Of a stretch of 64,000 nt of DNA, positions 56,401 to 59,400 are shown in pieces. A program made the position numbers. Each line of letters opens with the position of its first letter. Position 1 is the stretch's first letter. Source of the DNA: Escherichia coli (GTDB lineage: Bacteria > Pseudomonadota > Gammaproteobacteria > Enterobacterales > Enterobacteriaceae); the NCBI RefSeq assembly GCF_017348835.2, contig NZ_CP071375.1; one strand, 5' to 3'.

Positions 56401-59400
56401 TTAATGGATTGTTAGTCTTTGCATGAGCAAGCGGACTGATACATTTCTCTTTGTTCTCATTCAGAAAATCTCATCAGTCGCCGTTCAGACCGGTGTTGTG
56501 CTTTATGGATGCGTTACGCTCCTGATGACGTCATTTGACGTTCAACAGCATCACGGGGTCGCACGACATTTCACGTCAGTTAGTGCTATCGCTCAGGAAC
56601 AAATTTTCCCGAATTGGGATATGCCCGCAAATTGCTGGTGATGTGGGGAGAATCTGGTTGAGTTCGGTAGAATTGATTTGGAGGCAGAACGCTTAAATCG
56701 TGGCGTCCTGAAACGAAAAACGGACCTCCGTGGAGGTCCGTTTATATGAATTTGGTGCCGGACTCGGAATCGAATATGGTTGTTATCATGTTGATATTAA
56801 TCTCGTTTATTTGGTTTGATGAAAAATGTACCCTCTCTTGTACCCTCGGTCCCTTCTGGTGGTTTTTATGAGAACAAGTAGATCAAGATTTTTGTCATCA
56901 GAACACGTGTATTTTTGTGGGTTTTATTCCTGAGTTTTATTCCTTTTTACATCGCTAACGCTCCGGGATAGTGCTTGGCAATAATATCATTAAGCCTGTC
57001 AACCAGTTCTGGTTTCCTGAACGTGATGTGTGCGGAGCCCTTCTTAAAGTATCTGATGCTGAACATCTCATCTTCATAGTCCTCTTTACCCTGAACAGAC
57101 TGGATGTGGTCATCCAGATGAATGGTGATGTTTTCCCGGTTGTCGGGGATCGGTTTGCCGCTGAACAGGTGCAGCATTCTTTCCAGATCGGCAAGTCGAT
57201 CGGCCTGTTGCCCGGTGATAAGATGAAACCCCCATCTGTCCCACCTTACCAGGTTGTTGACGATAATTTTACTGCCAAACTTGCAGGGGCAATTGGTTTT
57301 GTAATTCCAGCTCAGTCCCCTGAAGACGTTGATCATCCCCCGCTCAAACACTTCATCTTTGTTCTGGTGCAGTTGTTCAAATGTGCTCAGAATGTTCGCT
57401 TCACTGATTTCCGGAAAATTATCGTACTCCAGTGACTGGTACCATGTATCACGGGCCTGTGCATCCATTAAGGAAAGCATCCCTGAACGTTGCATCAGGT
57501 CACGCCAGATTTCGCGGTCAAGATTCCGGGTGATGGCTTTCATTGCGGTTTCCGGTTTCTCCATCAGCCAGCAGCCGCAGCGAAAATCCTGTTTCATGGC
57601 CCAGGCCGGGGCGGTTTTACCGCCAATACTTTCTGTCATTGCTGAGATTTCAGCCAGTTGCCGGATAAGTGTGTCGATTTGCAGCAGCGCACTCTTTCGT
57701 ACAGCCAAAATGTGGCGGATACTGGTTGAGCAGATAACATCCGTATGTCTGTTGACCAGTTCCGGGCGGGAGATTGTGATATCTGACATCATCGTTTTTC
57801 CTTTTGGTTTATAAACGAAAACGCCAGCCGTATTCAGGCTGGCGTCAGTGGAATGAAGTCTGGTGAGTAAGACTCACCGGTTCTGTTGCAGAAGCTGCAG
57901 TTGGCGCAGGGTATGGATATCCTCCCTCGCCTGTTCAATGCAGGGCAGCAGTGCTGCCGAATCTGTTTTATCCTCATCGTTGTCAAAGATAATTCCCGAT
58001 TCGCAGTCGATATTGTCCTGCAGCCACGCAATCAGAATATCCAGTGCGGTTTCCGTGGTTAATGATTTCATGTTGTTCCTGGTTACCAGTCGAAAGTGGG
58101 TAAACCCGGCAGGCATTCAGCGCTGGCATCCAGATGAATGAGACTGACGCCATAACGTCGGATGAGTGTGACAACCAGACGGCGGAACGTTTTTGACAGG
58201 CCCTGGCGCTTAAGCCGCAGAACCGGGTATCGGCTTTGCAGGTCAGCCCTTTTGCATACAGCGTGACGGTATGCTGATGGCGGGGATTCAGTTCACCGCT
58301 GGTGAGCATGAGTTCCAGTTGTTTCATCAGCAGCGGAAAGGCCTGGTCCAGGTGGTACGCATCTGCATCGCTGAACAGGCCTCTAATACCGGCGCGGTCG
58401 GCAAGGTAATGCAACCGGTTACCCTCCTGCACCAGACGTGCCCCGAAACAGGGCGTCACGGTGCAGGGCAGCCCCCACCAGGGGCGGTCGTGATTGTCGT
58501 CGGGAAGTGTTGTCCCGGGGAGTGTGTCTGACACGATAAAATCCTTACAGAAAATCGGCTAAGAATGGTCCGGTAGTGGCGATAATTCTGCTCATCAGAA
58601 TTCCCACTCAGTTCAGGGTGACGCTCATCAGCCGGACATACGGACCAAAACTGTCCTTACGGCGTTCTGCAAACACGGCCAGCACACCGGGAATATCCTG
58701 CACTTCACGACCGGTATACGCTTCAGCACTGCCGTGCCAGCGGTATTTGCCGGTACAGAACGGAAAAAGACGGGATGCCGGATGCTGACGGTGAATACGC
58801 ATGGCTTCGCCACGGGTGATGATTTTCATAGTGGGATACCTCTGAAGACAGAAGATAAAAGTGAAAACAGGTGTGATGTGGTTGTAACGGTGACGGGTTA
58901 AAGCAGACCGTGTTCCGCAAAGGAGAAAACCTGGCTGCCACCGACTATCAGATGGTCCGGCACCCGGATATCCACCAGACCCAGTGCCTGTACCAGACGT
59001 TCCGTAATAAGCTGGTCTGCCTTACTGGGTGTGACTTCACCGGACGGGTGATTGTGTGCCAGCACCACGGCAGCGGCATTGTGGTACAGGGCGCGTTTAA
59101 TCACTTCCCGGGGATGGACTTCCGTGCGGTTGATGGTGCCGGTGAAGAGGGTTTCACCGGCAATCAGCTGATTCTGGTTATTCAGATACCACTGACAGCG
59201 GCACCGGAATCGGCCAGCAGTACACCGCCATTCCCCATGGATACGGTGGTGGCTGTGCCACCACTGCGGACATCCAGGGTACCTGATGGGAGTGAAATCA
59301 TCGTCCCCTCCCGGTCAGCTCACGGATCAACACCGTGAGCAGCTCTGGTGAAGGATTTTCCAGCATCATTTTACCGTAATGGAATTCCACATGGCAGGAA

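Follow-up and report, generated by a model that had tools for sequence, protein, structure and literature searches.

The cbeA-cbtA (yeeU-yeeV) genes encode a type IV toxin-antitoxin system. According to the account of Masuda et al. (2012) given in PMC5086665, the antitoxin CbeA neutralizes the toxicity of CbtA and binds or bundles MreB and FtsZ. The usual gene order of the modules that carry this pair is yeeS-yeeT-cbeA-cbtA-DUF5983-DUF957-DUF4942. A CbeA-family homologue can also occur as an orphan, and one such homologue, YagB, is known in K-12 (PMC5371832). A survey of 950 Escherichia coli genomes counted 73,201 occurrences of orphan antitoxins (PMC10790755). CbeA-family orphans, and orphan antitoxins generally, are common in this species (PMC5371832, PMC10790755). 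In the CbeA family, orphaned or decayed genes are the rule.

A module of this type was identified in the window, i.e., the whole 64,000-nucleotide stretch of E. coli DNA that was analysed. The first part of cbeA is present there and cbtA is absent, and the locus is very probably the scar of a deletion in a cbeA-cbtA type IV toxin-antitoxin module that is undergoing decay. Its significance is small, as it is a further example of how such modules decay at the termini of genomic islands in E. coli.

Genes at the distal end of the pheU island

Positions 51700-64000 of the window (12.3 kb) are 100% identical to the chromosome of the pig isolate PE164 (NZ_CP114128.1; blastn). The scar lies in an island inserted at the tRNA-Phe gene (pheU) beside cadC-cadB, on the minus strand and 1.2 kb from the distal island end. 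The gene string on this strand is 'yeeS (JAB/RadC fragment) - yeeT (DUF987) - cbeA' - 'DUF5983 - DUF957 - DUF4942. The yeeS gene (58898..59188, minus strand) is a 3' fragment of a RadC-like JAB domain gene with a missing N-terminus, which is annotated as partial by PGAP and matches the NCBIfam RadC family (E = 2e-26) over its last 68 codons. The gene yeeT (DUF987; 58608..58829, minus strand; PGAP WP_000692345.1) lies directly upstream of cbeA and encodes a protein with 97% identity to K-12 YeeT.

The last gene of the island encodes a methyltransferase-like DUF4942 protein (56947..57792, minus strand; PGAP WP_001382663.1), which matches PHROG 38825 (E = 1e-26) and PHROG 6263, 'DNA methyltransferase' (E = 8.5e-19). 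A terminator-like hairpin with a 10-pair stem, including seven G-C pairs, and a T-rich tail follows the stop codon of the DUF957 gene (57820..57846, minus strand) and was detected by a consensus scan, only as a pattern match. Beside cadC, the island's end is marked by an attR-like repeat of 136 bp (56639..56774, minus strand), which contains a copy of the pheU 3' end together with downstream bases and shows 94% identity to positions 1071..1207 of the PE164 locus, where it overlaps pheU (1018..1093). A frameshifted integrase fragment between the attR-like repeat and cadC is a further mark of this end; repeat and fragment together lie in window 56396-56774. No complete tRNA gene was found in positions 50000-64000 of the window.

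The region upstream of the module (59188-64000) is the accessory end of the LEE island. According to the PGAP annotation of PE164, it contains transposase fragments, from the IS256 family and from another, the C-terminal piece of a large-toxin-like DUF3491 gene, a short GNAT open reading frame, a gene for a hypothetical protein of 291 aa, a gene with an SdiA-regulated domain and the beginning of an effector gene with an EspG domain.

The deletion junction and the missing toxin gene

The first-pass annotation of this DNA held that the toxin gene appeared to have been deleted and that the gap of about 110 bp behind the antitoxin homology was too short for a toxin gene of about 375 bp. Both points are borne out. 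CbeA homology ends at 58226, which is 109 bp from the first ATG (58116) and 154 bp from the RefSeq start (58071) of the following gene, whereas the cbtA gene of K-12 has a length of 375 bp. Searches with two CbtA queries (K-12 and PS1) by tblastn yielded no CbtA homologue in any frame across the 64-kb window (best E 0.85-1.2), and the interval 58071-58226 in particular gave no CbtA match in any frame. In an alignment with an intact relative, the whole of cbtA falls inside the deleted stretch. The 80-aa open reading frame behind the gap likewise shows no similarity to CbtA and no Pfam match. Because neither a CbtA-family open reading frame in the interval nor a toxin homologue in the 80-aa frame was found, the observation is confirmed. 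A toxin gene concealed in another frame was also considered, and it was rejected on the best tblastn E value of 0.85 over the whole window.

The deletion junction (58225..58230, minus strand) was located by alignment to intact relatives; at this place one copy of the 6-bp direct repeat ATACCC is left, between GCAAAGCCG and GGTTCTGCGG. The deletion is one clean gap with near-identity on both sides, and its size varies with the reference allele from 863 to 868 bp; alignment to PS1Thumoskin9, which has a module of intact length, gives a single gap of 868 bp. The left breakpoint is in cbeA codons 102-104, where K-12, JB2 and C7 read GCCG-ATACCC-TCAGC, and the right breakpoint is 147 bp ahead of the end of the DUF5983 gene, where PS1, JB2 and C7 read GGTC-ATACCC-GGTTC. 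The junction in the window reads GCCG-ATACCC-GGTTC, and the six bases ATACCC are precisely what the BLAST alignments of the two flanks have in common. The motif is present at both breakpoints within one module in C7 (867 bp apart) and in JB2 (863 bp apart), while PS1Thumoskin9 carries ACACCC and ATACCC at a distance of 868 bp. The stretch removed comprises cbeA codons 104-122, a spacer of 88 bp, the entire cbtA gene and about two-thirds of the DUF5983 gene (some 97 codons from its start). The junction pattern is not due to chance; the breakpoint is clean against intact relatives.

A pattern of this kind, in which a short direct repeat borders the lost stretch on both sides and one copy survives, is the typical signature of microhomology-mediated deletions of the slippage type. 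A single recombination event between the two ATACCC copies would have led to the loss of about 865 bp, and, judged from this signature, replication slippage or another RecA-independent microhomology-mediated deletion is the most likely mechanism. The toxin gene was probably dead before the deletion occurred. In the order proposed, inactivation of the toxin would have come first, and the microhomology-mediated deletion would then have removed the toxin gene with parts of its neighbours. The damaged cbtA genes of the intact-length relatives were identified by sequence comparison. Those of C7 (locus positions 5099-5475) and JB2 (3874-4250) have a 1-bp deletion in common and are labelled 'frameshifted' by PGAP, and that of PS1Thumoskin9 (6875-7201) has a premature stop at codon 109. 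The DUF5983 gene of JB2 is also frameshifted. Since the nearest relatives of intact length carry a defective cbtA, the locus is regarded as routine toxin-antitoxin decay at the end of the pheU island. In any case, a single event of the extent observed would have abolished toxin and antitoxin function together.

A full match to a 100-bp junction probe was obtained in PE164 and F2_81, two pig isolates, and in no other of the 5,426 complete E. coli genomes. With a 1,251-bp query, 3,881 genomes contained a place covering at least 80% of the query, and among the matches listed all 28 other top genomes showed two pieces spanning about 2.1 kb, which corresponds to the undeleted form. The possibility that the junction is an artefact of assembly or sequencing was raised since repeated island modules tend to collapse in assembly. 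No support for it was found, and two independent complete genomes carry this junction, each of them twice and with the same spacing of 39.4 kb, so that an artefact is improbable in the extreme. The deletion pseudogene is an ordinary one, and the RefSeq annotation of the identical PE164 sequence already marks cbeA and the DUF5983 gene as partial pseudogenes.

The truncated antitoxin gene and the genes that follow it

The cbeA 5' fragment (58226..58534, minus strand) was identified by its match to K-12 CbeA and contains codons 1-103 of the CbeA/YeeU type IV antitoxin gene. It begins with a GTG start codon at 58534, preceded by an AAGGA ribosome-binding site, and both elements are intact. The assignment of the first 103 aa to a CbeA/YeeU-type antitoxin in the first-pass annotation was correct: residues 1-103 are 100% identical to the same residues of K-12 CbeA (tblastn E = 1e-69), and the Pfam CbeA_antitoxin family (PF06154) matches residues 18-103 with an E value of 6.1e-43. 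This match covers model positions 1-86 of 101; 85% of the domain is kept and the domain is incomplete, with 15 of the 101 positions gone.

The cbeA fragment opens a chimeric frame of 183 codons (57983..58534, minus strand), which was defined from the list of open reading frames and a three-frame translation. It consists of CbeA residues 1-103 and a tail of 80 residues; the tail is an out-of-frame translation of the DUF5983 remnant followed by 89 nt from the start of the DUF957 gene. Since the cbeA and DUF5983 fragments are fused out of frame, the cbeA frame runs on for 80 meaningless codons and stops inside the DUF957 gene. It had been noted earlier that this frame continues past the antitoxin homology and overlaps the next open reading frame, which holds for all 80 additional codons and the overlap with 58116..57874. 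It had also been noted that the frame enters unrelated sequence. The reading is indeed out of frame, but the sequence itself belongs to the module, being the last 147 bp of the DUF5983 gene (PF19419; tblastn E = 2e-28) and 89 nt of the DUF957 gene. The 80-residue tail has no Pfam, NCBIfam or PHROG match. Searches of NCBIfam and PHROGs with the chimeric frame and with the DUF957 frame in its 80-aa and 65-aa forms returned no families; these libraries do not contain the families concerned.

The 19 residues of K-12 CbeA that are missing from the window's cbeA (residues 104-122) include the hydrophobic segment YVYLAVYP, which is common to all three CbeA alleles compared. The alignment to the solved homologues 2H28, 2INW, 2JN7 and 2EA9 extends through residues 118-122. 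An AlphaFold2 single-sequence model of intact CbeA, with a mean pLDDT of 48.8 and too poor for use, weakly suggests a strand at residues 109-116. The PGAP annotation of the identical PE164 record lists cbeA as incomplete with a missing C-terminus, i.e., as a partial pseudogene. We conclude that the window's cbeA is a pseudogene. As judged from its sequence, its product is most likely a non-functional, truncated antitoxin. Because the start codon and the ribosome-binding site are intact, a 183-aa protein with a junk tail may still be made, and no selection for the truncated antitoxin is expected because the cognate toxin is gone.

The truncated CbeA with its new tail could instead act as a working orphan antitoxin, which would protect in trans against CbtA-family toxins encoded elsewhere or on incoming islands (anti-addiction). 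The intact start codon and ribosome-binding site and the 85% of the Pfam domain that remains are in keeping with such a role, as is the neutralization of non-cognate toxins by related antitoxins, YafW and YfjZ each neutralizing YkfI or YpjF (PMC5371832). The retention of the orphan homologue YagB in K-12 (PMC5371832) and the existence of a third related place in PE164 point in the same direction. A working antitoxin is nevertheless very unlikely. The last 15 of 101 model positions are gone, including YVYLAVYP, in a region through which the solved homologues align (118-122), and the tail is an out-of-frame read-through without homologues. The allele is confined to two pig isolates, so nothing points to selection, and the third place in PE164 shows no match to the cbeA 3' part or the DUF5983 part of the 100-bp junction probe. 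The description of the gene as an orphan, possibly altered antitoxin is therefore accepted for the loss of its own C-terminus, but 'orphan antitoxin' is an overstatement because of the 15 lost positions, the out-of-frame tail, the occurrence in only 2 of 5,426 genomes and the annotation as a partial pseudogene. The practical use of these results lies in annotation, where the 183-codon frame should not be named a gene or tallied as an orphan antitoxin.

The DUF5983 3' remnant (58083..58229, minus strand) consists of the last 48 codons and the stop codon and has no start codon of its own. It was identified by Pfam, tblastn and PGAP. The remnant matches the C-terminal domain PF19419 (E = 2.3e-9; model positions 45-90 of 90) and aligns to the DUF5983 protein of PS1 by tblastn (E = 2e-28). 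A three-frame translation places it in a frame that differs from that of cbeA, and the list of open reading frames contains none of at least 30 aa ending at 58083. An NCBIfam scan of the remnant gave no family, and that library does not hold this one. The PGAP annotation of PE164 records the DUF5983 gene as incomplete with a missing N-terminus.

The DUF957 gene (PGAP name; 57874..58071, minus strand) is intact and contains 65 codons, and its product is 98.5% identical to WP_000839233.1. The 80-aa open reading frame (58116..57874) is this gene lengthened to an upstream in-frame ATG at 58116. It shares 34 nt with the 3' end of DUF5983, which is read in a different frame. None of the current Pfam-A, NCBIfam and PHROGs libraries yielded a match to the DUF957 frame. 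The first-pass annotation described the 80-aa frame as yeeW-like, which was not upheld: it shows no similarity to YeeW and is instead 98.5% identical to the DUF957 protein. A tblastn search with K-12 YeeW found no match anywhere in the 64-kb window, with 3.9 as the best E value. K-12 YeeW aligns to the N-terminus of DUF5983 proteins (54% identity, E = 3e-15), and that part of the gene is deleted here. The 80-aa frame was rejected as a homologue of YeeW or of CbtA, having no similarity to either and no Pfam match, and it should not be named yeeW in annotations. The AntiFam entry ANF00264, which occurs directly 3' of DUF5983 beside cbeA-cbtA, has been argued in a 2026 preprint to be a genuine protein, perhaps joined to DUF5983 by programmed frameshifting (10.64898/2026.06.09.728211). 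ANF00264 may be the 80-aa DUF957 frame of the window.

The repeat around the LEE, related modules and comparison with known systems

The scar is part of a 1,085-bp unit, 'yeeS-yeeT-cbeA'::'DUF5983-DUF957 (57941..59025, minus strand), of which PE164 contains a second copy with 100% identity (blastn). The second copy is located near pheU (PE164 locus 8253..9337; about 4479072-4480156 of NZ_CP114128.1), in direct orientation and 39.4 kb away; F2_81 likewise carries the junction twice at this spacing. The LEE, a type III secretion island of 39 kb that extends from espF, espB, espA and eae to the EspG gene, lies between the copies, and the repeat stops at either end where the homology between the modules stops. 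The junction of the truncated DUF957 gene with the LEE flank is common to 43 genomes, in which the neighbouring module is undeleted, as it is in C7. The scar is therefore taken to have been copied between the modules by gene conversion or duplication after it had arisen. Its presence on both arms of the repeat may be of use as a lineage marker and may influence the stability of the LEE, since homologous recombination between such direct copies could lose or amplify the island. The more far-reaching proposal is that the scar is more than a dead gene: its position in both arms of a perfect 1,085-bp repeat would mark a recent gene conversion or duplication between the modules at the island ends, and the repeat would allow RecA-dependent loss of the LEE or its amplification in tandem. 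This proposal is considered improbable, and a trans-acting antitoxin function of the 183-aa chimeric protein is held to be less probable still.

The nearest relative is not the same on the two sides of the junction. C7 comes closest to the left flank (59189..58225), with 99.9% identity against 94.3% for PS1Thumoskin9. PS1Thumoskin9 comes closest to the right flank (58230..56900, through DUF4942), with 99.85% identity against about 91% for C7 and JB2. No intact module with both flanks at least 99% identical to the window was found among the sampled genomes. Because the nearest relative differs for each flank, the junction could have arisen between two paralogous modules. Such an origin would involve illegitimate recombination between two modules of the same island, a C7-type module by the LEE and a PS1-type module by attR, and the product would later have been copied to both sites. 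The identities of the flanks, each of which falls to 91-94% against the other relative, and the two direct copies of PE164, 39.4 kb apart and 100% identical over the shared 1,085 bp, agree with this origin. These modules are generally mosaic, and for this reason an unsampled parent with the same pairing of flanks is equally plausible. A simple unequal exchange would moreover delete or duplicate the LEE and not leave one LEE between two scars, so that extra steps would be needed. Recombination between two modules is accordingly regarded as possible but on the unlikely side. Whether the parent is an unsampled module or two paralogous modules were joined, the toxin is lost and the antitoxin truncated, and the conclusion on the toxin-antitoxin module is unaffected.

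The module in the window, read as a deletion scar, can be compared with three kinds of known system. The cbeA-cbtA (yeeU-yeeV) module of CP4-44 in K-12 has the same order of yeeS, yeeT and cbeA, with 100% identity over CbeA residues 1-103 and 97% identity in YeeT. In contrast to CP4-44, the window's cbeA lacks codons 104-122, and cbtA and the 88-bp spacer are absent. The two modules also differ in the part of DUF5983 that they retain, CP4-44 having the N-terminal part only ('yeeW') and the window the C-terminal part only. In the K-12 CP4-44 locus (region 3441-3848), 'yeeW' is only the N-terminal part of a DUF5983 gene. About 45 bp past it, the 3' end of DUF957 and the downstream spacer survive as a remnant, which matches window 57956-57788 with 85% identity. 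As 'yeeW' is followed by a DUF957 remnant, the K-12 reference module has its own, different internal deletion.

The intact-length modules of C7, JB2 and PS1Thumoskin9 show the same gene string as the window, and that of JB2 is located at the same chromosomal site beside cadC. They differ from the window in holding the 863-868 bp that are absent there, and their own cbtA genes are frameshifted (C7 and JB2) or shortened by a stop codon (PS1Thumoskin9). YagB of CP4-6 in K-12 resembles the window's gene in being a member of the CbeA family without a neighbouring CbtA-family toxin (PMC5371832). Set against YagB, the window's cbeA has demonstrably lost its C-terminus and carries a nonsense tail.
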